Program-made: the position numbers and the translations under genes | In this document: piece after piece, positions 8,722 to 47,498 of the stretch | Position numbering within the stretch: position 1 is the first letter of the stretch | Layout: every line of letters begins with the position of its first letter | NCBI GenBank assembly: GCA_963848295.1 | Contig: CAWKDB010000010.1 | Span: forward strand, 1,920,001-1,984,000 | Source of the DNA: an uncultured delta proteobacterium | Lineage (GTDB): Bacteria > Myxococcota_A > Polyangia > Haliangiales > Haliangiaceae | Direction: 5' to 3' | DNA length: 64,000 nt | The notes under the pieces: generated by a model | Told to the model about the DNA's origin: nothing | The model's database searches: none | The model's input: only the letters and a program-made list of their open reading frames with translations

Positions 8722-8725
<4 letters not shown>
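7355..8725 (+). CDS. actC: Alternative complex III NrfD/PsrC-like quinol-binding membrane subunit
   Basis: [18 protein letters not shown] and GWHSTIFPP motifs; multi-TM. Confidence 0.93.
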
Positions 8726-9254
<529 letters not shown>

Positions 9255-9258
<4 letters not shown>

Positions 9259-11313: not shown

Positions 11314-12131
11314 TGCGCGCTGCACTCGTCATCGCACTCTCGCTCGGTTTCTCCTTGCGCGCGGTCGCCGCCGATCCGCCTCCCGGCTCGCCCGCGTGGG
11401 CCGAGCAAGCCGACGTCACGGAGCACCTCGGCGACCAGCTTCCCCTCGATCTCCGGTTCACAGACAGCACCGGCCATCCGATCGAGCTCCGCCAGCTGTT
11501 CGACGGCGTTCATCCGGTGCTGCTCGTGCTCGCTTACTACGAGTGCCCGCAGCTGTGCAGTCTCGTGCTCGCTGGTGCCGTCTCGGCGATGCGGCAGCTC
11601 GACACGTGGGGCTGGAAGCTCGGACCGCAATATCGCGTCGCCACGATCAGCTTCGATTCTACCGAGCGCATCGATCAAGCGGCGCGCAAGCAGGCGAGCG
11701 TGGTCGGCACGCTCGGCGCCCCGCTCGAGGCATGGCCGTTCTTCGTCGGCAACGAGGCCAACGTGCGCGCGCTCACCGACCATCTCGGCTTCAAGTTCTT
11801 GCGTGATCCGCGCACCGGCAATATCGCGCACGCCGCGGTCGTGTTCGTGTTGACCCCCGACGGCAAGATCTCGCGCTACCTGTACGGCACCGACTACGCG
11901 CCCCGCGATCTCAAGCTCGCGCTGCTCGAGGCCTCCGATGGCAAGACCGGTTCGTTCGGCGACAAGATCCTGCTGCGCTGCTTTCATTACGATCCGACGA
12001 CCCGGCGCTACGGTCTGTTCATCAGCCGATTCATGAAGGTCGGAGGGCTCCTGATCCTCGTAATCGCGCTCGTCATCGGTCGCATTTTTTGGCGCCACGA
12101 GCGGCGGCGCGCGCGGAGGGGCGTGGCGTGA
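11313..12131 (+). CDS. SCO1/SenC copper chaperone
   Basis: Signal peptide, YYECPQLC, conserved His (IAHAA) and C-terminal TM helix. Confidence 0.9.
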   Translation: MRAALVIALSLGFSLRAVAADPPPGSPAWAEQADVTEHLGDQLPLDLRFTDSTGHPIELRQLFDGVHPVLLVLAYYECPQLCSLVLAGAVSAMRQLDTWGWKLGPQYRVATISFDSTERIDQAARKQASVVGTLGAPLEAWPFFVGNEANVRALTDHLGFKFLRDPRTGNIAHAAVVFVLTPDGKISRYLYGTDYAPRDLKLALLEASDGKTGSFGDKILLRCFHYDPTTRRYGLFISRFMKVGGLLILVIALVIGRIFWRHERRRARRGVA

Positions 12132-13183
12132 ACGAGCTGCTCCGTCACGCGTTGAATTTGCCGCCGCAGCGGTCGTCGATCGCGAGCTCGGTCGATCATC
12201 TACATTATGTGGTGATCCTGTGCACGATCGCCGGTGCGATGGTCGCGGGCGGGTTCGGCGCGATGTTCCTGGTGCGCTACCGGCGCCGCACCAAAGCCAT
12301 CCCGCTGACCCCATACGTGGTCGTCCCGCGCTGGCTCGAGGCGCTCGTGATCGCGGGGCTGCTCTCGCTGTTCTGCGGGTTCTGGGTCGTCGGGTTCTCG
12401 CAGTACACCACGATCGAATCCGCGCCTCCCGACGCGCTGCCGATCTACGTCACCGCCAAGCAGTGGATGTGGCAGTTCGCGTATCCCGACGGCCCGACGT
12501 CGGCGAACGTCCTGACCGTGCCGGTCGGCCGGCCGATCAAGCTGATCATGACGTCGCGCGACGTGATCCACAGCTTCTTCGTGCCCGACTTCCGGATCAA
12601 GCAGGACGTCGTGCCGGGACGCACGATGACGACCTGGTTCGAAGCCATCGCGCCGGGCACATCGGACGTATTGTGCTCGCAATACTGCGGCACCCGGCAC
12701 TCGCTGATGCGCGCGCAGGTCGTCGCCCTCCGACCGGCTGACTATGCGCGCTGGCTCGCGACCGCACGAGGTCCGCTCGCGTTGCCGGGCGCCAAGGGCA
12801 ATGGCATCGGGCTCGCCGCCACCGGCAAAGCTGTCGCGGCCGCGCACGGCTGTCTGCGCTGCCACTCGATCGACGGTACGCCGTTCATCGGCCCGACCTG
12901 GGCCAACGCGTTCGGCAGGCAGCGGCCCACCGCGGACGGCCGCTCGGTACTCGTCGACGAAGCCTATTTGACCGAGTCGATGATGGACCCCAAGGCGGTG
13001 ATCGCGGCGGGCTTTCAACCGGTGATGCCGTCGTATCAGGGGCTGCTCTCGCCCGAGGATATCTCCGCGATCATCGAGTACATCCGTTCGCTGCGCGACG
13101 TGCAGCCCGTGGTCGCGGAGCCGCCGCCGGTCGCCCCGATCACCTACCCGCCAGGAGCGCCCCATGACGCCGCCACCGACTGA
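12128..13183 (+). CDS. coxB: Cytochrome c oxidase subunit II with fused cytochrome c (caa3 type)
   Basis: QWMW, DVIHSF, CuA motif CSQYCGTRHSLM and C-terminal CLRCH...MP. Confidence 0.93.
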   Translation: MNELLRHALNLPPQRSSIASSVDHLHYVVILCTIAGAMVAGGFGAMFLVRYRRRTKAIPLTPYVVVPRWLEALVIAGLLSLFCGFWVVGFSQYTTIESAPPDALPIYVTAKQWMWQFAYPDGPTSANVLTVPVGRPIKLIMTSRDVIHSFFVPDFRIKQDVVPGRTMTTWFEAIAPGTSDVLCSQYCGTRHSLMRAQVVALRPADYARWLATARGPLALPGAKGNGIGLAATGKAVAAAHGCLRCHSIDGTPFIGPTWANAFGRQRPTADGRSVLVDEAYLTESMMDPKAVIAAGFQPVMPSYQGLLSPEDISAIIEYIRSLRDVQPVVAEPPPVAPITYPPGAPHDAATD

Positions 13184-14780
13184 CTACCTGCGCGCGAGAA
13201 GCGGCATCAAGTCGTGGCTGACGACCACCGACCACAAGCGGATCGCGCTGATGTTCTTCGTCGCGGTCACGCTCGCGATGATGCTCGGCGGTGCGTTCGC
13301 GATGGCGTTGCGCACCAAGCTGCTGATTCCGGGCCCGGCCCTGTTCAGCCCGCTCACGTACAACCGGTTGTTCACGCTCCACGGCGTGACGATGGTGTTC
13401 CTGTTCATGATCCCCGCGATCCCGACGGTGTTCGGCAACTTCTTCCTGCCGATGATGGTCGGCGCGAAGGATCTCGCGTTCCCGCGACTCAACCTCGCGA
13501 GCTTCTACGTCTACTTCGCGGGCGCCACCCTGACGCTGTGGGGCATGATCCACGGCGGCGCCGATACCGGCTGGACGTTCTACGCCCCGTATGCGACCGC
13601 GTCGCCGACCGATGTCGCGCCGATCGCGATCGGCGTGTTCGTGCTCGGCGTGTCGTCGATCATGACGGGCCTCAACTTCATCGCCACGACCCACATGCTG
13701 CGTCGTAGCGGGCTCCGGTGGTTCAAGCTGCCGCTCTTCGTGTGGGCGATCTACGCCACGAGCGTGATCCAGGTGCTCGCGACGCCGGTGCTCGGCCTAT
13801 CGGTGATCCTCGTCGCGCTCGATCACGCGCTGCACATGGGAATGTTCGATCCAGCGCTCGGCGGTGATCCGGTGCTGTTCCAGCATCTGTTCTGGTTCTA
13901 TTCGCACCCCGCCGTCTACATCATGATCTTGCCGGCGATGGGCGTGATCGCAGAGATCGTGCCTACGTTCTCGAAGAAGAACCTCCTGTCGTACAACGCA
14001 CTCGCGTATTCATCGCTCGGCATCGCCTTCGTCGGGTTCTTGACGTGGGGCCATCACATGTTCGTCGCCGGGATCTCGCAATTCGACGCCGCGCTCTTCG
14101 GGCTGCTCTCGATGTTCGTCGCGATCTTCTCGGCGATCAAAGTGTTCACGTGGATCGGCACGATGTATCGCGGCTCGATCACGTTCAACACACCGATGCT
14201 GTACTTCTTCTCGTTCGTCTTCTTGTTCGTGTTCGGCGGGATGACCGGCGTCGCGGTCGCGACCACGTCGCTCGACGTCCACTGGCACGACACCTACTTC
14301 GTGGTCGCGCACTTTCACTTCATCATGGTCGGCGGCACGCTGACCGCGTTCCTCGCCGCGATCCACTACTGGTTTCCGAAGATGTTCGGCCGGATGTACC
14401 CCGAGCGCCTCGGCCTGCTCTCCGCATCGCTCGTGTTCGTCGGCTTCAACCTGACGTTCTTCCCTCAGTTCCTGCTCGGCAATGCCGGCATGCCGCGGCG
14501 CTACTACAGCTACCCGGCTCGCTATCACGTCCTGAATGTGTTCTCGACGTGTGGCGCGTATCTACTCGGGCTGGCGATGACGATCACGCTGATCTACTTG
14601 CTCGTGTCGCTCAAGTACGGCAAGCGCGCCCCCGCCAATCCGTGGGGCTCGCGCGGCTTCGAGTGGCGCACGACCTCACCTCCGCCCGTCCACAACTTCG
14701 TGGTGCCGTTCGATCCCGCGTACGGCGCGTACTCGTACAACGAGCCACCTCCGCCAGACCATCCGACGGAATCGGAATGA
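13164..14780 (+). CDS. coxA: Cytochrome c oxidase subunit I (A2 type)
   Basis: [16 protein letters not shown] (YS motif), WGHHM and HFHF. Confidence 0.95.
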
Positions 14781-15403
14781 TCGAGCACGAAGTTCAATAC
14801 GATTCGATCGAGCGCCAGCACGCGACTGCGCGCCTCGGGATCTGGATCTTTCTGGGCAGCGAGCTCCTGTTATTCGCCGGTCTGTTCACGCTGTTCGTGG
14901 CGTATCGCTTCCAGTACCCCGCGGAGTTTCGCGCGGCCTCGGCGCACGCCAACGTCCTGATCGGCACGGTCAACACGTACCTGCTCTTGACGTCGAGCCT
15001 CACGGTCGCACTCGCGATCCATGCCGCCCGCCACGGACATCGCGGTCGCATCGTGATGTTCCTCGCAATCACGATCGCGCTCGGGATCGCGTTCGATGTG
15101 TTGAAGGGCATCGAATACGCCGAGCACGTGTCCAAGGGTATCGCGCCCGGTCACTACTACTCGTTCTCCGCGCTTCCCGCCCACGGCGCGGTCTTGTACT
15201 TCACGCTGTACTACCTGCTCACGGGGATCCACGCGATCCATGTCACCGGTGGCCTGATCATGCTCGTCTGGCTGGCGGTCAAAGCAAAGCGCGGCGACTT
15301 CACCCCGAGCTCGCACATCACCCTCGAGCTTGGCGGATTGTATTGGCACCTCGTCGACGTGGTGTGGCTCTTCCTATGGCCTCTGATCTACCTCATCCGA
15401 TGA
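14777..15403 (+). CDS. coxC: Cytochrome c oxidase subunit III
   Basis: WIFLGSELLLF, TGIHAIHV and GLYWHLVDVVW motifs. Confidence 0.93.
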   Translation: MIEHEVQYDSIERQHATARLGIWIFLGSELLLFAGLFTLFVAYRFQYPAEFRAASAHANVLIGTVNTYLLLTSSLTVALAIHAARHGHRGRIVMFLAITIALGIAFDVLKGIEYAEHVSKGIAPGHYYSFSALPAHGAVLYFTLYYLLTGIHAIHVTGGLIMLVWLAVKAKRGDFTPSSHITLELGGLYWHLVDVVWLFLWPLIYLIR

Positions 15404-15852
15404 CCCAGCCCTCCCAGCCATCCGCGCTGACCTACGTGATCGTGTGGCTTGCACTCGCGTCGCTCGCGACCCTGTCACTGTTGGCATCGTACGCGCACCT
15501 CGGCGATTGGAACGTGGTCTTCGCGTTCGCGATCGCGACGGTCAAGGCGGGGCTCGTATTTGCGGTCTTCATGCATCTCATGCACGGGCCGCCGCTTCAC
15601 CGCATCGTCATCGTCGTTGCGATGTGCTTCGTCGCGCTGATCATTCTTGGCGTGCTCGCGGATGTCGCCACTCGATCGGTCGCCAGTCCGTATGCGCTGG
15701 GATCACGCGATCGACGACCCACGACGGGCGTTCGCCTCGGCGTCCGACGCGCTCAGGACGGACGACCTATCTGCTTCGCGCCCTTCGCGAGCAGGAGCAC
15801 CGGCAGCATGCAGGCAGCGAGGATCGCCATCGTGCGCATCGCGTCGACGTAG
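15400..15852 (+). CDS. coxD: Cytochrome c oxidase subunit IV (C-terminus probably extended by read-through)
   Basis: Three TM helices with IATVKAGLVFAVFMHL; the 3' end overlaps the convergent MFS gene by 100 nt. Confidence 0.8.
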   Translation: MTQPSQPSALTYVIVWLALASLATLSLLASYAHLGDWNVVFAFAIATVKAGLVFAVFMHLMHGPPLHRIVIVVAMCFVALIILGVLADVATRSVASPYALGSRDRRPTTGVRLGVRRAQDGRPICFAPFASRSTGSMQAARIAIVRIAST

Positions 15853-17342
15853 GCGAGCTGGGTCGCTTGCACCTGCAGCTGGCGGTACGCGACCGCGAGC
15901 GCGTCGTGCGCCGCATCTGGCGCCGAGCGGCCGGCGTGCTCGAGCACGCGCGCGATGCCTTGGAGTTGGGCGACGAATGCCGGGTTGTAGTTGTTGGTGT
16001 GGCTTGCGAGGTAGGTCTGATGCATCTGCGCGTGGCGTGCGAGCTGCGTCGTGGCCAGCGCGATGCCGAGCGAGCCGCCCAAGTTACGCCCGAGGTTCAG
16101 CACGCCGGACACGGCGTTGTTCTGCTCCGGTCGAACGTGCGCATAGACGAGCGTGTTGATCGGAACGAACAGCAGCGAGAGCCCGACGACCTGGTAGACG
16201 CGCATCAGGATCGCGCTGCGAAAGTCGATGCCGACGTAGAGGTGGGTCGACATGTAGAACAGCGAGACCACGAGCATCGAAGCGCCGGTCGCGATCAGCC
16301 ATCGCGCATCGACCCTCGAGACCAGCGCGCCGGCCACGGGCATCAGCAGGATCAGCGCGAACCCGCCGGGCGACAACGTCTCGCCGGCTTGCTGTGCGCT
16401 GTAGCCCATCAACGTCTGCTCGAACGTCGGCAGCAGCACGGTCGGCGCGTACAGCACCATGCCGAGCAGCAGCATCAACAGGCTCGAGCTCGCGAAGGTC
16501 CGGTTCGTGAACATCCGGACGTCGATGACGGGATGGCGCTGGCGCCACTCCCACAGCACGAACCCGATGAGCCCGGCGCCGGCGATGATCGCGAAGCCGA
16601 CGATCGACGACGCGTTGAACCAATCGTCCTCTTGGCCCTTATCGAGCACGAACTCGAGCGAGCCCAGGCCGACCGCGATCAGGCCGAGGCCGATGTAGTC
16701 GATGCCTCCGGAGCGCTCGCGCATCTGCGCGAGGTGCGGCGGGTCGGTGACCACGTGCGAGGTGAGCAGCAGCGAGACGAGGCCGACCGGGATGTTGATG
16801 AAGAAGATCCACCGCCAGCTGAAGTGATCGGTGATGAAACCGCCGACCGTCGGGCCGATCGCCGGCGCGAGCACGACCGCCATGCCGTAGATCGCCATCG
16901 CCATGCCGCGCGATCGCGGCGGAAACGTGTCCGCGAGGATCGCCTGCTCGCTCGGCGCGAGCCCGCCGCCGCCAATACCCTGCAGCACGCGAAACAGCAC
17001 GAGTAGATCGAGGCTCGGCGCGATGCCGCACAAGAACGAGCTCGCGACGAACAGCCCGACGCTGAGCATGTAGTAGCGCTTGCGCCCGATCTTCGTCGCG
17101 AGCCAGCCGCTGATCGGTAGGACGATCGCGTTCGACACCAGGTACGACGTCAGGATCCACGTGCTCTCGTCCTCGGTCGCCGATAGGTTGCCTGCGATGT
17201 GCGGCAGGCTCACGTTCGCGATGCTCGTATCGAGCACCTCCATGAACGTCGCCATCGAGACGACGAGCGCGATGCCCCACGGATTGTGGCCGCCCGTCCA
17301 TCCGCTATCGAAGTACGCCGGGCGAGCTTCGCCCGCGGTCAC
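15753..17342 (-). CDS. DHA2 (EmrB/QacA) MFS efflux permease
   Basis: FMEVLDTSIANVSLPHI and WRWIFFINIPVG; GTGA coupling to the HlyD gene. Confidence 0.93.
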   Translation of the reverse strand: MTAGEARPAYFDSGWTGGHNPWGIALVVSMATFMEVLDTSIANVSLPHIAGNLSATEDESTWILTSYLVSNAIVLPISGWLATKIGRKRYYMLSVGLFVASSFLCGIAPSLDLLVLFRVLQGIGGGGLAPSEQAILADTFPPRSRGMAMAIYGMAVVLAPAIGPTVGGFITDHFSWRWIFFINIPVGLVSLLLTSHVVTDPPHLAQMRERSGGIDYIGLGLIAVGLGSLEFVLDKGQEDDWFNASSIVGFAIIAGAGLIGFVLWEWRQRHPVIDVRMFTNRTFASSSLLMLLLGMVLYAPTVLLPTFEQTLMGYSAQQAGETLSPGGFALILLMPVAGALVSRVDARWLIATGASMLVVSLFYMSTHLYVGIDFRSAILMRVYQVVGLSLLFVPINTLVYAHVRPEQNNAVSGVLNLGRNLGGSLGIALATTQLARHAQMHQTYLASHTNNYNPAFVAQLQGIARVLEHAGRSAPDAAHDALAVAYRQLQVQATQLAYVDAMRTMAILAACMLPVLLLAKGAKQIGRPS

Positions 17343-18601
17343 CGCACCCTCACCTTGACCTCCACCGACATCCCGGGGCGCAGCCGGTCTAACCCCGGCT
17401 GGCCGCGGTCGAGCGCGACGCGCACCGGGAGGCGCTGGACCACCTTGACGTAGTTGCCGGTCGCGTTCTCCGGCGGCAGTACGCTGAGCCGCGATCCGGT
17501 CGCGCCGCCGAACGCCTCGATCGAACCGTGCAGCGTCCGGTCGATCGCGTCGACGTGGACCTCGGCGGCAAGCCCGACGTGCATACGCTCGATCTGCGTC
17601 TCGCGGAAGTTCGCGGTGACCCACAGCGACTCGGTCTGCGCGATCGCCATCAGCTCTTGGCCAGGCGCGACGCGATCGCCGACGTCGACCGACTTTCTGC
17701 CCACCACGCCGGCGACCGGCGCGGCGATCTTCGCGTAGCCGAGGTTGAGGCGCGCCTGGTCGAGCTCTGCCTTCGCGAGGTCGCGGGCGGCGGTCCGTGC
17801 GAGCACCGCGGCGCGTTGCGTATCTTCTTCGCGCGGTGCGTTTGCTTCGATCTCGATCAGCTTGCTGCGGGCCAACGCCAGCTTCTGCTGTTGCTCGTCG
17901 ATGCGTTCGCGTGCGGCTTCGAGCGAATGCTCGAGCGCGTCGACGTTGGAGGCAGACGCTCTCGCGGCGTTGATCCGCTGGTCGGCCTCGGATCTCGGGA
18001 TCGCGCCACCGTCGACCAACTGCTCTGCGCGGCCGCGATCGAGCTGCGCTGTGTCGTCGAGTGCGCGGGCCTGCGCGAGCCGGGCGCGTCCCTGCTCGAA
18101 CGACTGGTTCGCCTCGGCGACCGACGCCTGCGCCGCCGCGAGGTCCGATCGACTGCTTGCCAGCGCGGCGCGATTGCTCGCCTCGGTGATCGATACGCTT
18201 GGCTGTTGCTGCGAGAGCTCGGCGCCGGCGCGCGCGAACGACGCTTTGGCCTCCGCGGCTGCGACCTCGAGGTCGGACGGATCGAGCTCGAGCAACGGCT
18301 GGCCCGCCTTGATCGGCTGATCCTCGACGACATACACCGCCTTCACGGTCCCCGCGACGCGCGGGCTCAGCTCGGTAATGTCGCCGTCGATCTCGGCGTC
18401 GTCCGTCGTCTCGAATTGCCGCGCATAGAGCCAATAGCCGAACCCGACCAGCGCGACCACGGTGACGCCGCCGGCGATCAGTAGCCACTTGCGACGCGAT
18501 CGCCGCGGCGTGTCGGGCGGTATGTCTCTCGCCGTGGCGGCAGGTCGCTCGGGCGCCGGCGGTGACGCCGGTGCGGCATCCTCATTCGCTCGCTCGGCCA
18601 T
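17339..18601 (-). CDS. EmrA/HlyD-family membrane fusion protein
   Basis: N-terminal TM, TTDDA, coiled coil and PPENATGNYVKVVQR. Confidence 0.93.
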   Translation of the reverse strand: MAERANEDAAPASPPAPERPAATARDIPPDTPRRSRRKWLLIAGGVTVVALVGFGYWLYARQFETTDDAEIDGDITELSPRVAGTVKAVYVVEDQPIKAGQPLLELDPSDLEVAAAEAKASFARAGAELSQQQPSVSITEASNRAALASSRSDLAAAQASVAEANQSFEQGRARLAQARALDDTAQLDRGRAEQLVDGGAIPRSEADQRINAARASASNVDALEHSLEAARERIDEQQQKLALARSKLIEIEANAPREEDTQRAAVLARTAARDLAKAELDQARLNLGYAKIAAPVAGVVGRKSVDVGDRVAPGQELMAIAQTESLWVTANFRETQIERMHVGLAAEVHVDAIDRTLHGSIEAFGGATGSRLSVLPPENATGNYVKVVQRLPVRVALDRGQPGLDRLRPGMSVEVKVRVR

Positions 18602-20969: not shown

Positions 20970-22946
20970 ATGAGCGTACCGATCTTACTGGTCACGATGC
21001 CTTGGGGGTCGGTCCGATTCCCGTCGATCCAGCTCGGGACACTCAAGTCGGTACTGCAGCGCGGAGGTCTCGAGGCGCGAGTGCTGTACTTGAATCTCAA
21101 GTTCGCCGAGTTCATCTCCGAACAAGGAGCGAAGGCGGCGAGCACATCGGACGAGGACCGGATCTCGATCAAAGAGCTGCTCCAGCTTGGGGACAACCCG
21201 AGGTTAGGTGACTGGGTCTTTGCGGTCCCGCCGTTCCGCCCAACCAACGATGACGCCGATCGGGACTTCCTCACGCCGCGCGGTGTCCGCGAGCCGGCGG
21301 TCGAAAGGGTCGTCGCGAGCCTCACACGTCTGCGTGCTCTGGCTCCGGCGTTTCTGACTGACTGTCTAGAAGAGATCATCGCGCTGGAACCTCGCGTCAT
21401 CGGGTTTACGACCAGCTTCGGTCAGAACGTCGCGTCGCTCGCATTGGCGCAACTGATCAAAGAACGCTTGCCTGCGACGAGGATCGTGTTCGGTGGGGCG
21501 AACTGCGATGGGCCGATGGGCGTGGCGCTCCACCACAGCTTCCCGTGGGTCGATGTCGTCGTGCGCGGCGAAGCGGAGCGCGTGGTGGTTCCGTTGTTCG
21601 AAGATCTGCTGGCGGGCCGTCCGGTGCGAGATCTGCCCGGCATGTGTCGGCGCGATGAGGGCGTGAGCATCGTCACGCCACAGAGCCACGATCTGGTCAG
21701 CATGGCCGAAGTTCCCGCGCCCGACTACGAGGAGTACTTCGAGGCGCTCGCGGCGAGTCCGCTCCGACACGATCTGCTGAGCGACGTGCGCATCCTCTAC
21801 GAGAGCGCGCGCGGATGTTGGTGGGGCGAGAAGAACCACTGCACGTTCTGCGGGCTCAACGGCTCGTCGATGAAGTTCCGCAGCAAGAGTGCCGACCAGA
21901 CGTATCGAGAGATGGTCGAGCTCGGCCGCCGGCACACAAACCTCCATTTTCAGGTGGTCGACAACATCATCGAGCTGCGCTACCTGGAGGAGCTCCTGCC
22001 TCGGCTACGCGATACCGAGTGGGATTGGAATGTGTTTTACGAAACCAAGGCCAACCTCAAGCGCGATCAGCTGCGCCTGTTTCGCGAAGCGGGAGTTCGC
22101 GACATTCAACCCGGCATCGAGAGCCTGAGCACTCCGATTCTCAGGTTGATGAACAAGGGCGTTACCGCGCTCCAGAACATTCGGCTGTTGAAATGGTGCG
22201 CCGAGCTCGGGATCCACATCGAGTGGAACCTCATCTTTGGCTTCCCCGGGGAAGATCCCGCGGAATACGAAGCGATGGCCGCGCTGATCCCGTCGTTGGT
22301 TCACTTGACTGCGCCCACAGTGACGCCGCTCAACGTCGAACGGTTCAGCCCGTATCACGAGCACCCCGAGCGCTACGGTATCGAGATCCTCGGCGCGGCG
22401 AGACACTACGCGCTCCTCTACCCGCTCCCCGCGGTGCAACTCGCCGAGCTCGCATACGCCTTCGAGTTCCGCTATCTCGATGGCCGCGATCCCCACGCGT
22501 ATGCCGATCCGCTGGTGAGCCAAGTCAACGCGTGGCGGGAAGCGGCCGCGGACGGAACCTTGGCGTACGATGTCGGGCCCGGTTTCGTGGTCATCGATGA
22601 CCATCGCCCGACGGTGGAGTCGGCGCGCTACACGTTTCACGAGCGCGAAGCGCTGATCTATCTGGCGTGCGACGCCGGTGCGACGCCGGCGCAGGTGCAC
22701 GACCTCCTCACGAAGCGCGGCGAACACGAGCTCACGCCAGGAGACATCGCAGAGTTCCTCGACAGCTTGGTCGAGCTCCGTCTGGTCTACCGCGAGCGCG
22801 GCAAGTACCTCTCCCTCGCGACCGCGCGTGACCAGCACCGGGCGCTCAGGCGACTCGGCATCACCGACCTCGACGACGAGCACGATCGCGACGAAGCTGC
22901 AGCGGCAGCTGGTTTGATCCAGCTCAAGCGCGCTGCGAGCCAGTAG
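20970..22946 (+). CDS. RiPP-maturation B12-dependent radical SAM C-methyltransferase (TIGR03975/PoyC-like)
   Basis: MPW...PSIQLG.LK start, B12-binding region (GGANC, GEAE), Cx7Cx2C motif CWWGEKNHCTFC, QPGIESLS, WNLIFGFPGE, and a C-terminal wHTH/RRE-like region. Confidence 0.9.
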   Translation: MSVPILLVTMPWGSVRFPSIQLGTLKSVLQRGGLEARVLYLNLKFAEFISEQGAKAASTSDEDRISIKELLQLGDNPRLGDWVFAVPPFRPTNDDADRDFLTPRGVREPAVERVVASLTRLRALAPAFLTDCLEEIIALEPRVIGFTTSFGQNVASLALAQLIKERLPATRIVFGGANCDGPMGVALHHSFPWVDVVVRGEAERVVVPLFEDLLAGRPVRDLPGMCRRDEGVSIVTPQSHDLVSMAEVPAPDYEEYFEALAASPLRHDLLSDVRILYESARGCWWGEKNHCTFCGLNGSSMKFRSKSADQTYREMVELGRRHTNLHFQVVDNIIELRYLEELLPRLRDTEWDWNVFYETKANLKRDQLRLFREAGVRDIQPGIESLSTPILRLMNKGVTALQNIRLLKWCAELGIHIEWNLIFGFPGEDPAEYEAMAALIPSLVHLTAPTVTPLNVERFSPYHEHPERYGIEILGAARHYALLYPLPAVQLAELAYAFEFRYLDGRDPHAYADPLVSQVNAWREAAADGTLAYDVGPGFVVIDDHRPTVESARYTFHEREALIYLACDAGATPAQVHDLLTKRGEHELTPGDIAEFLDSLVELRLVYRERGKYLSLATARDQHRALRRLGITDLDDEHDRDEAAAAAGLIQLKRAASQ

Positions 22947-23072
22947 CGCTTTCCCGCGAGGGTCGAACGGCTCGCGGATCAGTCGTGTTTGGGACTCGTG
23001 CGATCGACGTGCGCTATGCCCGGGCGGCGTCCACGGATTCCGTACCGGTGCGCCGTTCGGGTATCGTTGGTC

Positions 23073-26000
23073 GTGGGCAGCGATACGCGAACCGGATCGG
23101 GTGTTCCGACCGGCGTGCCGGCGAGCTTCGCATCGAGTGCGACCCCCGGTCAGTTGACCGGTCGGGAGCTCGGCGGCTTCACGTTGCGCGAAGTGATCGG
23201 CGCGGGCGGCTACGGCGACGTGTATCTCGCCGTGCAGGAGGCGTTGCATCGCGACGCGATCGTGAAGGTGCTGCGCCAAGAGGCGATGGACGAGATGCGA
23301 GTGCAGCGGTTCCTGCGCGAAGCGCGGCTCGCCTCGCGACTCGACCATCCGTATGCGGCGCACATCTATGCGTTTGGCGCTGAAGACGACGGCGTGTTCT
23401 GGATCGCGATGGAGCACGTGCGCGGGGCGTCACTCCGTGCCGTCCTCGAAGCGCAAGGCCCGATGGTCCTCGAGAGATTCGTGCCGCTGCTCGAACGGAT
23501 CTGCGAGGTCGTCCAGACCGCACACGAGCAAGGGATCATTCACCGCGACCTCAAGCCAGACAACATCATGGTGATCTCGCGGGCGGGGAAGCTCATGCCC
23601 AAGCTGCTCGATTTCGGGATCGCGCGGGCGCTGGGCGAGGAGGCGACGTTGCCGAATGAAGCGGCGAGCGCGGAGGACCTTGCGCGTCCCGTCGAAAAGA
23701 CGACGCAGCGCGGATCCGTGTTGGGATCGCCCCCGTACATGGCGCCGGAGGTGTGGAGGGATGCGCACGGCGTCGGACCTGGCGCGGACCAGTACGCACT
23801 CGGCGCGCTCGCCTACGAGGCCCTGAGTGGCCGGATCGCGTTCGATGGCAGGACCGTGATGGAGGTCGCGCGCGCGCACGCCAAGGGTGTGGTCGCGCCG
23901 CTCGGCGACGGATTTCCTGTCGAGCTCGATAGCGTGATCAGTCGTTCGCTCGCTCGTTCGCCTGCGAATCGGTATGGGAACATGCTCGAGCTTGCTCAGG
24001 CGTTCCGCGACGCCGCCGGGGTCAACGCCGCAGCGGTCGACATCCCCGAGCTCGACCAAGAGCTGCGGGCGCTGTACCTGGCGCGGGCGCCGCAGCCACT
24101 TGCGGACGCGGTCGCAGGCTACGACGCAGCGAAAAATGCGCACCAGGCTCGCGAGTCGTTGCGCGCACTGGTCCGGACCTCCGCGACCTATGTGGGAATC
24201 GTCGCGCTTGCCTGCCGGACACGCGTTGGCAGCGGAGGAGTGGTCGATTCGGAGCATACGCAAACGCTCCTGCGCGAGCTCCGCCGCGACGGACTGACAT
24301 CGAGTGGATGGATCGGGCTCGCCCGCCAGCTGACCGAGCCGTTCGCGCGTCTTCCCGACACGCATCCGATGCCGGAGCTGGTGACCCTGCTGCAGCGCGC
24401 ACGTGGAGTCGATCCGTTCGCCTCGGTGGTCGAGGGCTCGCTGTCGGAGTCGCTGGTCGATCCGTCGCAGGAAGCGGCGAGCCAAGCGATCGCGCGCGAG
24501 CTCCCCAGCGTGATCGGCCTGCTCCGTGCACTCGCGTTCGTCCTCGACTACCAGCTCGTCGTCGCACGCGATGGCTATGCGGAGTCCTGGGCCGGCGCGC
24601 GCGGTGCAGGCGCCCGCCGGCGCGTCCTGCTCGGCCGAGTGGTCTCGCAGGACCATCCAGTGCTCGTGGACAGCGACGGGCACCCACTCGTCTCGCTGTG
24701 GCCGCTGATGCAGCTGAGCATGGCGGTGCCCGGACGTACGGAAGAGCTCTTCATGTTGGCGGGACCGGGCCGACGCGGTGCCCGGCTCGTTTCGAGCCCC
24801 CACGGGTTCGAGCACAGCGATGATGGGCTGTGGGATTGGTTCCGCGAGCAGCTGTTCCGCGCCGAGGATCCGGAGGCGAACGCGACGGCCGTGGAGTCGC
24901 CATACCGCGGGCTGGCGGCATACCGCGCGAGCGACGCGGCGTGGTTCTTCGGTCGCGAGCGCGAGGTCGAGGTCGTGATCAATCGTCTCAAGGTCGAGGC
25001 GTTCGTCGCGGTGGTGGGACCGTCGGGTGTCGGCAAGAGCTCGTTCGTCCACGCCGGCGTCGCGTCTGCCCTGGCGGGCTTTCGAGTGGTGACGACCCGG
25101 CCCCAGCATGCGCCCCTCGAGCAACTCGGAGCAGCGCTCGGCATCCCCAACTTACGCGAGGCGGCGACCGCCGATGTCACCACGGCCGCAGCGCAAATCC
25201 GCGCGCTGGCAACCGAGTCGAACGGCCTGCTCGTCGTGATCGATCAGTTCGAGGAGACGCTCACTCTCGGTAGCTCGCCGGAAGAGCGCGATCTGTTTGC
25301 ACGGGTCCTGCTCGCCGCGACTCGCACGCCAGACCATCCGGTCCGCGTCGTGATCACGTTGCGCGACGACTTCTTAATACGCGCGGAACAGCTGCCCGGC
25401 TTCGACCAGGCGCTCGCCAGAGGACTCCAGCTCCTCGGACCACTGGGCGCGGCCGCACTCGAGCGTGTCGTCGTCGAGCCGGCACGTCGCGCGGGCTTCG
25501 AGTTCGAGGATGCGAACCTGCCGGCGAGGATGGTCGAGGCTGTCGCAGGTACTCCTGCCGCCGTTGCGCTGATCTCGTTCACCGCCACGCGACTGTGGGA
25601 GTTGCGCGATCGTCACTTCCATCAACTGCCAAGGAAAGCCTACGAGGCGATCGGGGGCGTGGCCGGTGCCCTCGCGCTGCACGCCGACGAAACGGTCGAA
25701 GCGATGCCTGCGGGCGAGCGTGCGCTGGTGCGCAAAGCCTTCCGCCATCTGGTGACGTTCGAAGGTACCCGCGCCGTGCTCGGCCGCGATGAGTTGATGC
25801 AGCTGCTCGGCGGCCGGGGGGACGCGGAGAAAGCGCTCGAGGGACTGATCGAGGCCCGGCTCTTGGTGTCGTCGGAGAACGAGGAAGGCGAGGCAGCGGT
25901 CGAGATCATTCACGAGACGCTGCTCACGGCGTGGCCGCGGCTGGCCGAGTGGCGACGAGAAGATAGCGAAGGCTCGCGGTTCCACGAACAGCTGCGCGCC

Positions 26001-28418
26001 GCCGCCAAGCAATGGCACGATCGCGGCCGCCCGCGCGGGGCACTGTGGCGCGGGGACGCCCTCGCCGAATACGAGCTGTGGCGCAAGCGCCACCCCGATA
26101 ACCTCACACCGGTCGAGGCCGCGTTCGGCGGGGCGAGCGTCGCGAGTGAAGCACGGGGGCGCCGGCTCCGTAGGTTGTCGGCAGCGATCGCTCTGGTCAT
26201 CGCCGCGGTGTTCGTCGCGTTCCTCTGGCGCGCAAACCGGATCGAGCATCGGATGCTGCGCGAAGCGACCTTCGATCAGGGCCGGATGATGATGCTCAAC
26301 GGCGATAGCCGCGCCGCGCTGCCCTATCTGCAGCATGCGTACGAACAAGGCGAGACCGGCCCGGCGAATCGCTTGCTGATCGAGGAGGCTCTTCGATCGG
26401 GACGCGCACGCATCGCGACCTTTGCCGGGCACACCGGCCGACTGCGGGCGGTTGCGTTCAGTCCCGATGGTACGGAGGTCGGGACGGCGAGCGACGACGG
26501 TACCGCCCGGGTCTGGAACAGCAAGACCGGGGCCCTGATCGATACGATCGCTCTGTCGGGCGTCGTCCGAGCGCTCGCGTTCAGTCCCGATGGCAAGATC
26601 GTCGCCTGCGGAGGCGACGAAGCAGCAGTCCACCTTTGGGACCTCGAGCAACACCGCGAGCTCGCCCCGCTCGCGGGAGCCGGGCCGGCGGTTCTCCAAC
26701 TGTCGTTCAGCGGCGACGGCCATCTCATCCTGGTCGTCGGCGCCGGCCGAATCAAGACGATGTCGCTAATCGGAGGCGCGGTCGTCGATTTCGGCCCAGT
26801 GGAGGGTTTTGCCGGCGCGGTCTTTGCGAACCACGACGCGACCATCGCGGGCTGGGATTCTGCCGGACACGTCGGGCTGTGGGACACGCGCTCGCGGCAG
26901 CCGATCGCTAGCCACGTTGCCGCGGTCGGTGATGGTGTAGGCGCCGCCGCCCCCGACGGATCCTTCGTTGCAGTGGCGACAAAGACCGGGCAGCTCGACG
27001 TGCTCCGTGCCGACGGAACCATCACCGCGATCACCGCGCACGATCAGACCATCATCTCGGTGGCGGTTTCGCCTTCAGGTTCGCTCGTAGCAACCGGCAG
27101 CGCGGATGGCACCGCCAAGACCTGGGACCTCGCGGGCCGGCCAGCTCGCGTCTTCGGTTGGGGAGGTGGTCCCGCGATCAACGTCGTGCGATTCTCACCG
27201 AACGGCGAATTGCTGTTGACGGCCTGCGCAGACGGCTCCGCGCGGCTCTGGCAGGTGCGGAGCGGGCTTTTGCTCGGCGAGCTGTCCGGCCATTCCACCG
27301 CGATCTTTGCCGCGGCGTTTTCTACGACAGGCGATCGTATCGTCACCGGCTCGCTCGATTCGCGCGCGATCGCGTGGGATGTCGCGAAGGCCCGCGAGTT
27401 TGTGTCGCTCCCGATCGGAGGGGTCACCTCGATCGCGTTTGTTTCACAGACGGCGTTCAGCCGAGATGGGCGGTTCGTCGCCGTGGCAACCGCCGATCGA
27501 TCGCTCGCGGTCCTACGGTCGGTGGACGGAGCCCTCGTGTGCAGCCACGCGTTCGACAAGCCGATCGATCAGATCGCGTGGGGGCCAGATGGCGCGACCA
27601 TCGTGACGGTGTTCGACTCGGACCTGATCATTCCCGTCTGGGATGCGCGCACTTGTACGGTCGTGCATCAGTTGAGACATCCTCGGCCCGCCTCGTGTGT
27701 CGCGTTTGCTCCGAACGGGGAGATCGTCAGCGGCTCCGATGACGGCATCCTCCGGCGCTGGGACATCGCCGGCGAACGCGTAGTGGCGAGTTACCCTCCC
27801 CTTCCCGGTCGAATCGACCTCGTCGGCTTCGATCCCGCCGAAGCGCAGATCTGGGCGACAACATCGAGCGAAACAGGCGGTGCCCTCACCCTCTTGGATC
27901 CCGCTCACCCGGTCAACCGACGGGTGCTCGCGGCGTCGAATCAATCGCTCTCCGCGGTAACGTTCGATCCAGCACACCATCGCATCCTCGCGTCGGCGCT
28001 CGATCAGCGCGTGTGGATCTGGGATGATCGCAGCGGGGCGTTGATCACCAAGCTCGACGCGAGCGGGGTTCTGGCGGGACTAGAGATGAGCCCGGATGGA
28101 CGTTTCCTCGTGGGCATCGGCGGGACCTCGCCCACGGTCTGGGATCCGGACACGCTGGCCGAGCTAGGCACTCTCGACGGTCACACCGATGTCGTCGGCC
28201 AGGGTGGCTTCCTACCGGGCGATCTGCTCGTGACCGCAAGCCGCGACGGTAGCGTCCGGGTCTGGGACCTAGCGACCCGGCGCTCGCTCTTGATACTGCA
28301 CGGCGCAGACGAGATGGCGCTCAGCCCCCAAGGTGCCGTGATCCTTGCCGACGGAGCAGGCGTGCGGGAGTGGTTTCCGAGCATGCCCACACCGGAGCTC
28401 GGTACGATGATGAAGTGA
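23073..28418 (+). CDS. Ser/Thr kinase - STAND (nSTAND1-like) NTPase - TM - WD40 repeat protein
   Basis: GAGGYG, HRDLKPDN, DFG and APE; PYRGL...FFGRERE, Walker A GPSGVGKSS, Walker B VIDQFEE; TM helix; many GH...WD repeats. Start uncertain (22989, 23016 or 23073). Confidence 0.9.
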   Translation: MGSDTRTGSGVPTGVPASFASSATPGQLTGRELGGFTLREVIGAGGYGDVYLAVQEALHRDAIVKVLRQEAMDEMRVQRFLREARLASRLDHPYAAHIYAFGAEDDGVFWIAMEHVRGASLRAVLEAQGPMVLERFVPLLERICEVVQTAHEQGIIHRDLKPDNIMVISRAGKLMPKLLDFGIARALGEEATLPNEAASAEDLARPVEKTTQRGSVLGSPPYMAPEVWRDAHGVGPGADQYALGALAYEALSGRIAFDGRTVMEVARAHAKGVVAPLGDGFPVELDSVISRSLARSPANRYGNMLELAQAFRDAAGVNAAAVDIPELDQELRALYLARAPQPLADAVAGYDAAKNAHQARESLRALVRTSATYVGIVALACRTRVGSGGVVDSEHTQTLLRELRRDGLTSSGWIGLARQLTEPFARLPDTHPMPELVTLLQRARGVDPFASVVEGSLSESLVDPSQEAASQAIARELPSVIGLLRALAFVLDYQLVVARDGYAESWAGARGAGARRRVLLGRVVSQDHPVLVDSDGHPLVSLWPLMQLSMAVPGRTEELFMLAGPGRRGARLVSSPHGFEHSDDGLWDWFREQLFRAEDPEANATAVESPYRGLAAYRASDAAWFFGREREVEVVINRLKVEAFVAVVGPSGVGKSSFVHAGVASALAGFRVVTTRPQHAPLEQLGAALGIPNLREAATADVTTAAAQIRALATESNGLLVVIDQFEETLTLGSSPEERDLFARVLLAATRTPDHPVRVVITLRDDFLIRAEQLPGFDQALARGLQLLGPLGAAALERVVVEPARRAGFEFEDANLPARMVEAVAGTPAAVALISFTATRLWELRDRHFHQLPRKAYEAIGGVAGALALHADETVEAMPAGERALVRKAFRHLVTFEGTRAVLGRDELMQLLGGRGDAEKALEGLIEARLLVSSENEEGEAAVEIIHETLLTAWPRLAEWRREDSEGSRFHEQLRAAAKQWHDRGRPRGALWRGDALAEYELWRKRHPDNLTPVEAAFGGASVASEARGRRLRRLSAAIALVIAAVFVAFLWRANRIEHRMLREATFDQGRMMMLNGDSRAALPYLQHAYEQGETGPANRLLIEEALRSGRARIATFAGHTGRLRAVAFSPDGTEVGTASDDGTARVWNSKTGALIDTIALSGVVRALAFSPDGKIVACGGDEAAVHLWDLEQHRELAPLAGAGPAVLQLSFSGDGHLILVVGAGRIKTMSLIGGAVVDFGPVEGFAGAVFANHDATIAGWDSAGHVGLWDTRSRQPIASHVAAVGDGVGAAAPDGSFVAVATKTGQLDVLRADGTITAITAHDQTIISVAVSPSGSLVATGSADGTAKTWDLAGRPARVFGWGGGPAINVVRFSPNGELLLTACADGSARLWQVRSGLLLGELSGHSTAIFAAAFSTTGDRIVTGSLDSRAIAWDVAKAREFVSLPIGGVTSIAFVSQTAFSRDGRFVAVATADRSLAVLRSVDGALVCSHAFDKPIDQIAWGPDGATIVTVFDSDLIIPVWDARTCTVVHQLRHPRPASCVAFAPNGEIVSGSDDGILRRWDIAGERVVASYPPLPGRIDLVGFDPAEAQIWATTSSETGGALTLLDPAHPVNRRVLAASNQSLSAVTFDPAHHRILASALDQRVWIWDDRSGALITKLDASGVLAGLEMSPDGRFLVGIGGTSPTVWDPDTLAELGTLDGHTDVVGQGGFLPGDLLVTASRDGSVRVWDLATRRSLLILHGADEMALSPQGAVILADGAGVREWFPSMPTPELGTMMK

Positions 28419-28427
28419 ATCATCCCC

Positions 28428-28499
28428 CGATCTCATACATGTATAATATCATTACGTTTTCCATTGAGATCGACACCGCGTCCGGGTACTTTGGTAACC
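28428..28499 (+). promoter_or_regulatory. AT-rich sigma70-like promoter (TTGAGA-17 bp-TACTTT) for the precursor, with dyad elements
   Basis: -35 at 28464-28469, -10 at 28487-28492, and the ATG 7 nt later with no SD. Palindrome ATACATGTAT at 28435-28444; inverted repeat CGATCTCA/TGAGATCG at 28428 and 28465. Confidence 0.55.
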
Positions 28500-28640
28500 A
28501 TGAACAAGACCAAGAAGCCCACCAAGAAACAGGCGAAGCTTCAGGTTCTAAAAGTCGCGGTTCGGAGCCTCAGCGTGAAAGAGCTCAAGGACGCGGTGGG
28601 CGGAATCGCCGTCCACAATGCTGGGTGCGCGTTCACCTAG
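28500..28640 (+). CDS. Putative RiPP precursor peptide, 46 aa, double-glycine leader
   Basis: MNKTKKPTKKQAKLQVLKVAVRSLSVKELKDAVGG-IAVHNAGCAFT*. Has an LS..EL..V.GG-type cleavage motif; absent from the ORF track because it is under 60 aa. Confidence 0.8.
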   Translation: MNKTKKPTKKQAKLQVLKVAVRSLSVKELKDAVGGIAVHNAGCAFT

Positions 28641-29692
28641 CCGAGTCGTCGGAACGAGAAGGCGGCCCAGCGGAACGTCCCCATCCAGGCGCGCGCGTTG
28701 CTTTTTGCGAAGCGCCTCTCCAGAGCGCGCCACATGCGCGCCGGATCCTCCCAGCCGGGTGAGGCCGCCGCTTTCAAGTGTTCCTGAGAAAGGAACGCTT
28801 TCGCGAACGGGATGCCGATCGACCGGCGCTCGTCGAGCTCGCAGCTCGCGAGATGTCGGACCGGGCACCCGAGCGCCGTCAGCCGCGTCTCGAGAGAGCG
28901 CGCGTGAGCCGCGGCGTCGAGACGCCCGCGCGTATTCAGCAACCGCGCCAGCGGATGTCGCCTCGGCACCGTGAGCCATCCGTCGATGATGACGAGATAG
29001 CCGCCCTGCTCGAGGACGGAGTAGATCCCTCGTGCCGCGCGCCCCGGGTCGAGCCAGTGGAGGGCGAGCGAGATCGTGACGACGTCGTAGTGCTCGGTGT
29101 GAAATGGCAGCCGGTTGCAGTTGTCATGCAGATAACGCACGCGCACACCACGCTGTGCCGCGTCCCCCGCAGCGATCCTCAGGAATGGCTCGGAGACGTC
29201 CATCCCCGTAACGTGAGACGAGATCTCTGCTAGCTGATTTGCCAAGGCTCCAGTTCCGGTCGCGAGATCGAGGACTCGCGTTGGTTTTCGGATCCTGGCC
29301 GCGCGAGCAACCCAACGCGCGATCGCGGGCGGAATCGTCCGGTGCTCGCGATAGTCGTCGGCCATGTCCGCCCCGTACATCGCGCGAGCATCGCCGACTC
29401 GAACGAGGATCTGGTGGCGCTCGAGCCCGCTCACCAGCTGATATGCGATCCGCTGGTGCTCGGCCGTGCGCGCGAGCCCGTTGACGCGAAGAAATGCAGC
29501 GATCGCCTCGCGGACAGATGTCCCGGTTCCGCTGAAGCAGCCGAGCAGCACGCGATGGGGTTCGGTCAGATTCACCGCGCGGTTGTACGGATGCGTGAGC
29601 GACGTGACGTATGGCTTGCCGTCGAAGTCGACTTCGAGCGCGAAGTGCGGCGATGGTTTGAGTACATCGTCGAACGCGGCATCTTTGCCCAT
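28637..29692 (-). CDS. Class I SAM-dependent methyltransferase with N-terminal PqqD/RRE-like extension
   Basis: VLDLATGTG, GMDVSEPFL, YDVVTISLALHW and LEQGG, preceded by about 100 aa with a beta-strands-then-three-helices pattern. Confidence 0.82.
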   Translation of the reverse strand: MGKDAAFDDVLKPSPHFALEVDFDGKPYVTSLTHPYNRAVNLTEPHRVLLGCFSGTGTSVREAIAAFLRVNGLARTAEHQRIAYQLVSGLERHQILVRVGDARAMYGADMADDYREHRTIPPAIARWVARAARIRKPTRVLDLATGTGALANQLAEISSHVTGMDVSEPFLRIAAGDAAQRGVRVRYLHDNCNRLPFHTEHYDVVTISLALHWLDPGRAARGIYSVLEQGGYLVIIDGWLTVPRRHPLARLLNTRGRLDAAAHARSLETRLTALGCPVRHLASCELDERRSIGIPFAKAFLSQEHLKAAASPGWEDPARMWRALERRFAKSNARAWMGTFRWAAFSFRRLG

Positions 29693-29777
29693 TGAAGCGA
29701 TCCTACGTGACCCCGCGGACTTGATCGACGGCTCGGCGTGAACGTGGGGCTTCCTCATCGCGTACCATGGTCGGGCT

Positions 29778-31223
29778 GTGACCCATAGTGCGAAACGTAG
29801 ACTCGCAGGCAAACGCGATCTGATCGTGATCGGCGCCGGGCCAGTGGGCTTGGCGGCACTCTGGTACGCGCATCGTTACAGCATCGACGCGATCGCGCTC
29901 GACGCCGGGCAAGCATCACTAGATTCGATTCGCTCGTTCGGCCCTGGGCTTGTCACGGTCTCGACCGCGCATGAATGGGAGATCGATGGGCTCCCGGTCG
30001 ATTGCCGCGCCCCGACCGAAGTCACGCGCGAGGACCTCCTGAGCTACTACTCTCGGATCGGCGCCTACGGCCGACTCGAGGTCGCATGTCGACAGCGCGT
30101 TACGGCGCTCACTGCGCGCCCCGACGCGGTGAGGGTCGAGGTCGAAACGCAAGACGGGCCAGCGTATTGGCTTGCACGCCGAGTGATCGTGACGCCATGG
30201 TTCCGTCGGCGCCGAGTCGCACTCGAGGGGCCCGGTGTGAGCGTCGTCGAGGCCGCGACCGACGCGATATCCGCCAGTGAGCGCGTGGTCGTGATCGGGG
30301 CTGGAATGTCGGGGCTCGAGACGTGCGATCATCTGCTCAGACGTGGCGTACGCGTCACGTTGCTCGACAAGCGCCGACAGGTGTTGCCTCCCGAGCTCCA
30401 GACTCTGTTCAAGGTATCGGGCTCTCGCTACGTCGATAACGTCGGATCGATCGCTGTTGCGAAATCCGGTGTGCTTGCGGTCTCGCAAAAGGGTCTGGCG
30501 ATCCAGGTTCCGTGCACGGTCGCGGTGAATTGCACGGGGCTGGAGGTCAATCGCGATCTGCTTCGAGCTCTTTTCGGCGCCGAGCTAATGTCTGAAACGG
30601 AGGCGCGCGCACTCGAACGCTTTCGGCCGCACCGATCGAGCTATCGCACGGACCCCCGAGCCATCGCGGCGCAGTTGCCGGCGTTGTCCGACGCGATCTG
30701 GCGCGGACGACGTGGCGTGCACTTCGCCGGGACCGTATTTCACGTCGGCGGTCCGCTCGGCGCAGGTATCAAGTGGTCGATCGAGACTGCTCGATGGGCG
30801 CTGGACGCGATCGCCGGGAAGTCGAAGGTCACCGTGGACCCCTCGATCCACCTGCCGACGTGGTTTCTCACCCTCGCCAATACGTCGCCTCTCGTGCATC
30901 GTGGACTCCGCTGGTCGAAGCACTTGGGGGCGATCGTGCCGACCCCGATTCCGACCTGGTCTCGGGGCACGAAGTTGTTCGAGGGTGAGACGCCGACGGG
31001 TGGGACGCTTGGAGCGCCGTCGCACGACACGCGTGCCCATGGCGTCGCCCGCCGCAGGGTGTTGACCGATCTCCGCGACGCTTGCTACTCGGGCCGATCG
31101 GTCGCCGCGCTCGTTGCAACTCTCGGTATCGATCGCGAAGTGATCCTCAGCGCGTTGGGCGCGTTGTGGACCGGAAATGGCCTGACGTGGGTACCGCCCG
31201 GAGCGACGCGACCGCGCGGTTGA
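29778..31223 (+). CDS. FAD/NAD(P)-dependent oxidoreductase (YpdA/TrxB-like) with C-terminal winged-helix-like extension
   Basis: VIGAGPVGLAA, TREDLLSYY, a second Rossmann motif VIGAGMSG, CTG, and C-terminal ACYSGRSVAALVATLG...LGALW..NGLTW. Confidence 0.78.
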   Translation: MTHSAKRRLAGKRDLIVIGAGPVGLAALWYAHRYSIDAIALDAGQASLDSIRSFGPGLVTVSTAHEWEIDGLPVDCRAPTEVTREDLLSYYSRIGAYGRLEVACRQRVTALTARPDAVRVEVETQDGPAYWLARRVIVTPWFRRRRVALEGPGVSVVEAATDAISASERVVVIGAGMSGLETCDHLLRRGVRVTLLDKRRQVLPPELQTLFKVSGSRYVDNVGSIAVAKSGVLAVSQKGLAIQVPCTVAVNCTGLEVNRDLLRALFGAELMSETEARALERFRPHRSSYRTDPRAIAAQLPALSDAIWRGRRGVHFAGTVFHVGGPLGAGIKWSIETARWALDAIAGKSKVTVDPSIHLPTWFLTLANTSPLVHRGLRWSKHLGAIVPTPIPTWSRGTKLFEGETPTGGTLGAPSHDTRAHGVARRRVLTDLRDACYSGRSVAALVATLGIDREVILSALGALWTGNGLTWVPPGATRPRG

Positions 31224-43837: not shown

Positions 43838-44913
<1,076 letters not shown>

Positions 44914-44917
<4 letters not shown>

Positions 44918-47488: not shown

Positions 47489-47498
47489 GGAAACCGCC

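Follow-up and report, generated by a model that had tools for sequence, protein, structure and literature searches.

What does the locus at positions 20,970 to 31,223 of a 64,000-nucleotide stretch of DNA from an uncultured delta proteobacterium of the Haliangiaceae (assembly GCA_963848295.1, contig CAWKDB010000010.1, positions 1,920,001 to 1,984,000; hereafter the window) encode, and which of its genes belong together? A sequence-only reading had described four genes, for a radical S-adenosylmethionine (rSAM) enzyme, a 46-aa peptide, a methyltransferase and a flavoenzyme, and had taken the three enzymes to form a new class of machinery for peptides that are made by ribosomes and modified after translation (RiPPs). 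These four genes are real, but that account omitted an 1809-aa kinase-nSTAND1-WD40 protein encoded between the rSAM and peptide genes. The conserved unit is the kinase together with the peptide, and the enzymes vary from locus to locus. Because kinase and peptide recur with changing enzymes, the three-enzyme set is more aptly viewed as a single variable cargo within a broader module of kinase and peptide, and because this pairing recurs in related myxobacteria, the locus is likely part of a not yet described module for peptide signalling, as opposed to a stand-alone new antibiotic class. In the reading preferred here, to which a probability of about 0.5 is given, a tailored and exported peptide would be sensed by the neighbouring receptor kinase.

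The kinase protein is made of a Ser/Thr kinase domain (Pkinase), some 295 aa that form an unnamed domain, an nSTAND1 NTPase and WD40 repeats. The nSTAND1 domain matches PF20703 with 331.9 bits (cut-off 27.1) and has its Walker A motif, while the unnamed domain gave no Pfam match and only unnamed clusters as top Atlas matches. The latter domain has six paralogs in the genome of the window, seven genes in all, and a Lys-rich double-Gly (GG) peptide is encoded 35-129 bp from the open frame of the kinase in 7/7 cases. The selection rule for GG peptides was drawn up after these seven had been seen and selects 19 of 45,630 small open reading frames (ORFs). The unnamed domain was found in 26 of the 61 genomes searched, a tally including the window's own genome and one unpublished genome on which nothing else here depends, and peptides were retrieved by a similar rule at 21/40 loci of relatives, many of these loci being incomplete.

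A held-out test was done with a leader hidden Markov model (HMM) trained on 30 leaders and applied to 79 named loci, from which 20 overlapping the 40-locus training pool and 20 incomplete at their 3' end were excluded, leaving 39. The leader HMM gave no match at the six of these from Acidobacteriota and Clostridia. Among the 33 myxobacterial loci, 18 had a leader match of at least 10 bits within 4 kb (12 of them within 500 nt; one match, at L132, is doubtful) and seven others had look-alikes below the score or failing the GG filter. For comparison, the background of the model was 17 matches per 7.78 Mb, and 47 control nSTAND1 loci without the unnamed domain gave two true peptides and one spurious match. 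The held-out loci include kin and loci of the same genome, which are non-independent, and therefore no P value is given for the linkage. From these sequence comparisons, the unnamed domain appears to mark a peptide-linked nSTAND1 subfamily. No description of the kinase-peptide pairing was found in the open literature, subscription journals and supplements lying beyond this search.

The neighbouring genes differ widely across loci and include stand-alone LanC-like genes, LanB, C39 exporters, a LanD-like flavoprotein, a P450, glycosyltransferases, other methyltransferases and FHA-sigma-54 activators; LanB, LanC or C39 genes were present at 10/33 held-out loci as compared with 0/40 controls. The rSAM, methyltransferase and flavoenzyme trio was found together only at the window locus. 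The flavoenzyme was found in none of the 146 other genomes of the order, and neither it nor the methyltransferase in any of the 126 other STAND-kinase loci counted, so that the three-enzyme set is not supported as a class of its own. At L005, L006, L043-L045, L049, L053, L056 and L058, stand-alone LanC-like genes lie beside Cys-containing GG peptides with no LanB in the examined stretch, accompanied by glycosyltransferases in L043 and L044 and by a LanD-like flavoprotein in L058. An eighth GG peptide of the window's own genome (L008:2846-6687, G000:C1) lies behind a different kinase (Pkinase-TPR) accompanied by a divergent sigma factor gene, and a LanC-like gene comes next.

Regarding the topology of the receptor, hydrophobicity peaks 330-480 residues past Walker A in 45/51 full-length homologs, typically behind an Arg-rich patch. 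Because this patch precedes the predicted membrane helix, the WD40 part is placed outside and the kinase and STAND domains would lie inside. The region behind the membrane helix covers about residues 1085-1809. The WD40 part is also the most variable, with a median identity of 27% as compared with 52-53% for the kinase and nSTAND1 domains, although such repeats often drift faster anyway. Among named sequences, the nearest homologs of the kinase carry the label Kofleriaceae, which suggests that the window comes from this family. Homologs with the full kinase architecture occur in Acidobacteriota and Clostridia (L090, L091, L106, L110, L142, L147), where no peptide was seen; upstream of the one in L090 lies an ORF fragment which we take to be sigma-factor-like.

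nSTAND1 was defined in counter-invader systems, according to the accessible part of PMC8195603. With these and with bacterial NLR-like proteins the window receptor has in common an effector-STAND-sensor layout, here with a kinase as effector and a beta-propeller sensor, and periplasmic sensors are predicted in some of those systems (PMC8195603 and PMC10907252, in their accessible text). An effector-associated domain pair, on the other hand, was not seen, and the linkage of the present family to RiPP precursors and sigma-54 promoters goes unmentioned in the accessible portions of both sources.

Whether the peptide is the ligand of its neighbouring kinase was approached by comparing 59 oriented loci, among which two pairs with common flanks were found. 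In the first, L002 (of the window's own genome) and L086 have a DNA identity of 86% as far as the membrane helix and of 91% once more downstream, whereas the sensors have just 45 of 2223 bases in common, the cores are unrelated and a methyltransferase lies in the gap of L002 only. In the second pair (L122 and L123), sensor and cores are both kept. The alignments thus point to sensor and peptide having been exchanged jointly at one orthologous site, and both patterns fit a cognate pairing by analogy; in the agr specificity groups, signal and sensor likewise vary jointly.

Concerning regulation, a GG-N10-GC motif, which from its consensus we take to be a sigma-54 promoter, was found at -31..-24 before the ATG of 20/59 peptide genes as compared with 5/148 other genes. 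This position window was chosen after inspection; the positions that were not selected for agree with the sigma-54 consensus. No Shine-Dalgarno sequence was found in the 20 motif-bearing peptide genes, which therefore implies leaderless transcripts. Myxococcus is known to have sigma-54 activators that bear FHA domains, and these are linked to kinases. An inverted repeat (GCACTTCA..TGAAGTGC in L003, with near-copies elsewhere) is shared by L003, L070 and L087 some 80-110 bases before the peptide ATG and is a candidate activator binding site. A sigma-70-like site noticed by eye before the window peptide was rejected, since a scan gave 0.

Comparable circuits are found in Gram-positive bacteria, where ComC/ComAB/ComDE and BlpC/BlpAB/BlpHR are double-Gly pheromone circuits having in common with the present module a small GG-leader peptide beside a membrane kinase and a C39 exporter. 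Peptide pheromones of Gram-positive bacteria are received by histidine kinases or by regulators in the cytoplasm, whereas the window receptor is a Ser/Thr kinase-STAND-WD40 protein with neither a histidine kinase nor a response regulator, and membership in the double-Gly two-component circuits fails because of this difference in receptor type. The sigma-54 promoters, the Gram-negative host and the presence in one genome of several paralogous pairs, whose RiPP enzymes vary, are further differences. Transcriptional feedback is likely in common with these circuits and with agr and NisRK, whose autoinduction is treated in the accessible parts of PMC7595303 and 10.1101/783472, and the joint variation of signal and sensor resembles that of the agr groups.

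Table 1. Features of the kinase-peptide locus, in window positions.
Feature	Position	Strand	Description
rSAM enzyme	20970..22946	+	B12-dependent radical SAM C-methyltransferase (TIGR03975), Cx7Cx2C, C-terminal RRE-like region
Kinase gene	22989..28418	+	Ser/Thr kinase, ~295-aa unnamed domain, nSTAND1 NTPase, membrane helix, WD40 propellers; predicted single-pass receptor
Unnamed domain between kinase and nSTAND1	24024..24908	+	No Pfam match; putative marker of the peptide-linked subfamily
nSTAND1 NTPase domain	24900..26036	+	PF20703 match, Walker A intact
Predicted transmembrane helix	26172..26228	+	From hydrophobicity, behind an Arg-rich stretch; orientation inferred
Double-Gly precursor peptide	28500..28640	+	Leader 28500-28604, 11-aa core 28605-28637
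Class I SAM methyltransferase	28637..29692	-	Predicted N-terminal RRE-fold domain, residues 1-99 (29396-29692)
YpdA/Bdr-fold flavoenzyme	29778..31223	+	GxGxxG motif present twice, CxxC absent, three-helix extension at the C-terminus

The genes of the locus (Table 1) are bordered by an alpha/beta hydrolase gene and a DUF389 gene. The kinase gene, whose true start is possibly as late as 23154, follows the rSAM gene after 42 bp and precedes the peptide gene by 82 bp, while the methyltransferase gene converges on the peptide gene with overlapping stop codons and the flavoenzyme gene diverges from the methyltransferase gene. The locus is not a single operon, because the methyltransferase lies on the minus strand and the flavoenzyme gene is divergent.

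The 46-aa ORF carries a leader that is rich in Lys and ends in GG, followed by the 11-aa core IAVHNAGCAFT (1102.52 Da when unmodified), has a host-like codon score (0.79 per codon) and an ortholog which is 83% identical and keeps 8/11 core residues. Therefore the double-Gly peptide predicted earlier stands, and it is a genuine RiPP precursor with high probability. The leader resembles the known LxLxKx5L/GG type, which together with its processing by C39 peptidases is treated in the accessible part of 10.1101/2020.03.13.990614. The resemblance is weak for the window's own peptide, whose match to the profile NF038153 (11.1 bits) is below the cut-off of 22 and which agrees with the motif only when this is loosely drawn; 22/31 family peptides match this profile at E up to 1. 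Leader type, GG end and C39 processing are shared with class I lanthipeptides, but the LanB dehydratase and LanC cyclase of that class are both missing from the window, in agreement with the earlier remark that lanthipeptide enzymes are absent. Cys is present in 28/31 family cores, many of which are just 8-12 aa long, and for some of these peptides a tailoring enzyme is missing nearby. The genome has a single C39-ABC exporter gene, on another contig (C2:792339), with HlyD and outer-membrane partners. Three further GG peptides with near-identical leaders and longer Arg/Thr/Cys-rich cores (G000:C10:2563142(-), C10:2866711(-) and C10:2999764(+)) lie away from the peptide-linked kinase subfamily and are possibly other clients of this exporter.

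The cobalamin rSAM enzyme was correctly recognized from the sequence, as it matches TIGR03975 over profile positions 1-606 of 606 with 625.3 bits (cut-off 281.85) and has the Cx7Cx2C motif at residue 283. This family is found in 18/147 genomes. Three of the four closest homologs (46-60% identical) adjoin a leader peptide and the fourth is near a C39 exporter, while among 20 rSAM loci compared a clear leader match was seen at L170 only. At L166 (2934-16765) a 46% identical rSAM gene is found with a C39 exporter, two further radical SAM genes, glycosyltransferases and heptose-pathway-like genes (SIS, HAD, cytidylyltransferase), and no precursor was found in this cluster. Three relatives carry three to five TIGR03975 paralogs per 20-25 kb (L174, L176, L177, L168-L169) with no leader-peptide match.

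The nearest characterised comparison case, by analogy, is MpcB of the clavusporins, which beta-methylates four residue types and required a separate DUF5825 partner, MpcC, according to the accessible part of PMC10849626. Linear RiPPs that are modified by a Cx7Cx2C B12 enzyme, with neither lanthipeptide nor YcaO enzymes involved, are thus already known in the clavusporins. As far as the accessible text of the same source goes, a Cx7Cx2C B12 rSAM enzyme, a DUF5825-like C-terminus, a linear core with Ile, Val and Thr and a developmental role are in common, and the reported clusters are actinobacterial without exception. In contrast, their MpcC, S9 peptidase and dedicated major facilitator superfamily (MFS) exporter are not found at the window locus, which adds the GG leader, methyltransferase, flavoenzyme and receptor kinase.

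Each of the three enzymes had been said to carry an extra winged-helix region resembling a RiPP recognition element (RRE), a claim that holds best for the methyltransferase, whose class I assignment was itself confirmed. Its predicted model has a mean pLDDT (the confidence score of the prediction) of 41 overall from an input of three sequences, so that only residues 1-100 were used; these form a sheet and three helices, as in the three-strand, three-helix RRE fold. Fold alignment of this part gave TbiB1 with Z 9.1 (root-mean-square deviation, rmsd, 2.5, 84 aligned), TbtB 8.6, MibB 8.4, lasso B1 8.4 and PqqD 7.3, tied with a non-RiPP methyltransferase domain at Z 9.6, and the Atlas lead for the N-terminus was MftB/PqqD (0.81). 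A Foldseek search gave no match at E 0.001 or better. The C-terminal region of the rSAM enzyme, on the other hand, lies inside the TIGR03975 profile and matches DUF5825 weakly, and the C-terminus of the flavoenzyme is modelled as three helices and one strand, its sheet having a pLDDT under 50. Comparison of the three extensions with hhalign gave a probability of at most 2%.

The YpdA-like nature of the flavoenzyme was upheld by its predicted fold, which aligns best with the bacillithiol disulfide reductase YpdA/Bdr (7a76, Z 25.4, rmsd 3.6, 308 aligned); the score against TIGR04018 (63.4 bits) is below the cut-off of 339.9. It shares with YpdA/Bdr the absence of CxxC and differs from it by an identity of about 19%, a C-terminal extension of about 130 aa and the RiPP context. 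The fold-match lists are dominated by the FAD domain and are uninformative on the C-terminus. Ten close homologs were found, nine near full length, and a metagenome scan for their context yielded one 2.5-kb locus, in which the homolog, the only one with known context, lies directly behind a YcaO gene; a scan of genome contigs yielded none. The methyltransferase family is tiny, with two full-length homologs. Orthologs of the methyltransferase (79% identical), flavoenzyme (78%) and peptide all come from records with a longest contig of 541,393 bp, which suggests, without showing it, that they are adjacent. With these orthologs from like records, the YcaO-linked homolog and the RRE fold, the locus is very likely RiPP-type, as originally proposed.

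Taken together, these features suggest the following mechanism. The enzymes would dock on the leader through RREs, which is quite probable for the methyltransferase on its predicted model, nearly as probable for the rSAM enzyme and somewhat better than even for the flavoenzyme. By analogy with MpcB, the rSAM enzyme would add beta-C-methyls to Ile1, Val3 or Thr11. RRE enzymes work on leader-bearing precursors, and therefore methylation of a side chain rather than of a free N-terminus is inferred for the methyltransferase, which would most likely modify the conserved Cys8 or His4 with the leader still attached. At the single Cys (Cys8) the flavoenzyme might carry out mixed-disulfide reduction or S-oxygenation. 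As exact chemistry, these proposals for the three enzymes are rather unlikely to be right. The C39 transporter would then cut at GG and export the core, and there is an even chance that the outward WD40 propellers bind it, that the STAND domain forms oligomers and that targets, FHA-sigma-54 activators for instance, are phosphorylated by the kinase.

More tentatively, at somewhat less than even odds, Kofleriaceae and allied myxobacteria would hold cognate pairs of ligand and receptor, a tailored ribosomal peptide being read by the NLR-like Ser/Thr kinase of single-pass type that is encoded next to it, and sensor, peptide and enzyme cassettes would be swapped to give private channels; that of the window would use a C-methylated, sulfur-modified 11-mer made by an undescribed enzyme set. 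If true, such pairs would be the parallel in bacteria to the signalling of plants through peptides and receptor kinases, in a group whose A-signal is a mixture of amino acids and peptides according to the accessible part of PMC12288465. The parts have known relatives (clavusporin-type rSAM enzymes, GG leaders, nSTAND1 sensors), and for two RRE-type enzymes of the locus no characterised relative was found in the present searches. The family names candidate ligands for many orphan Ser/Thr kinase-STAND receptors of this multicellular predatory group, the naturally swapped pairs offer built-in specificity controls, and the unnamed domain may serve as a marker gene for mining short RiPP precursors.

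Several observations weigh against the signalling reading. Eight of the 33 held-out myxobacterial loci lack any peptide candidate. Frameshifts, due either to decay or to errors of assembly, split 4/7 of the own-genome kinase genes (G000:C10:4158858, C10:350338, C2:726946, C2:318113); the copy in the window is intact. The window's own peptide gene has no sigma-54 motif, no FHA-sigma-54 gene is found in the window, and such genes are only weakly enriched at held-out loci (5/33 as compared with 2/40 controls). On the side of the enzymes, the Pfam and NCBIfam PqqD profiles matched none of the three extensions, and no DUF5825/MpcC-like gene above cut-off was found in the genome, which is 85% complete. 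Moreover, the joint exchange is drawn from two pairs, hitch-hiking of adjacent genes may account for it, and sensor-core covariation over 32 loci with nSTAND similarity fixed gave a partial r of -0.026, which 389/500 permutations reach. Since the pattern of the pairs would also be expected from adjacency, and with this null result, the peptide is considered as likely as not to be the ligand of the neighbouring receptor kinase.

The negative covariation test fits the receptor sensing an outside cue (prey, a competitor, an invader or a foreign peptide) and turning on a bioactive RiPP, the peptide then being output. The linkage, the sigma-54 promoters and the RiPP cargo are accounted for just as well in this manner, the definition of nSTAND1 in counter-invader systems (PMC8195603, accessible part) agrees with it, and LanB is found at some loci together with LanC or a C39 exporter. 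This possibility, serious but on the whole unlikely, has against it that sensor and peptide were replaced jointly at one site and kept jointly at another, and it sits less well with cores of 8-12 aa, some without a tailoring enzyme nearby, or with a window locus in which no immunity gene was seen. A self-contained RiPP class of rSAM enzyme, methyltransferase and flavoenzyme, with the kinase as bystander, is in line with the RRE fold of the methyltransferase, the common 541,393-bp longest contig of the three orthologs and the 8/11 core residues kept, yet it is improbable: the trio was found together at the window locus only, the kinase gene lies inside the locus within 42 and 82 bp of its neighbours in a pairing that is family-wide, and the sole flavoenzyme homolog with known context adjoins YcaO instead.

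An intracellular role for the peptide, either as substrate of the kinase-STAND protein (Ser/Thr phosphorylation before LanC-type chemistry) or as a nucleating adaptor as in NLR signalling, would make sense of the many stand-alone LanC-like genes without LanB and of the Cys in most cores; it is less probable still, given a leader of the GG export type, the recurrence of C39 exporters and the fact that the kinase varies in the part which is predicted to lie outside. Finally, the kinase gene could mark an insertion hot spot whose neighbouring enzymes do not act on the window peptide, as the three transcription directions within 10 kb and the atypical codon score of the flavoenzyme (0.16) might suggest. 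This is very improbable, for the linkage is specific to one nSTAND1 subfamily, the methyltransferase has an RRE fold and the three orthologs travel together.

Outside the locus, an EmrAB-type efflux pair (15753-18601) lies on the opposite strand 2.4 kb upstream of the rSAM gene with no sign of belonging to it. At 3811-15403, genes like those of alternative complex III come before a cytochrome c oxidase operon; these are ordinary, and so are the contents of 190-2656 and 43991-52143, namely IS3 and IS4 transposases and a BatA-BatB vWA operon with a gene which is presumably MoxR.

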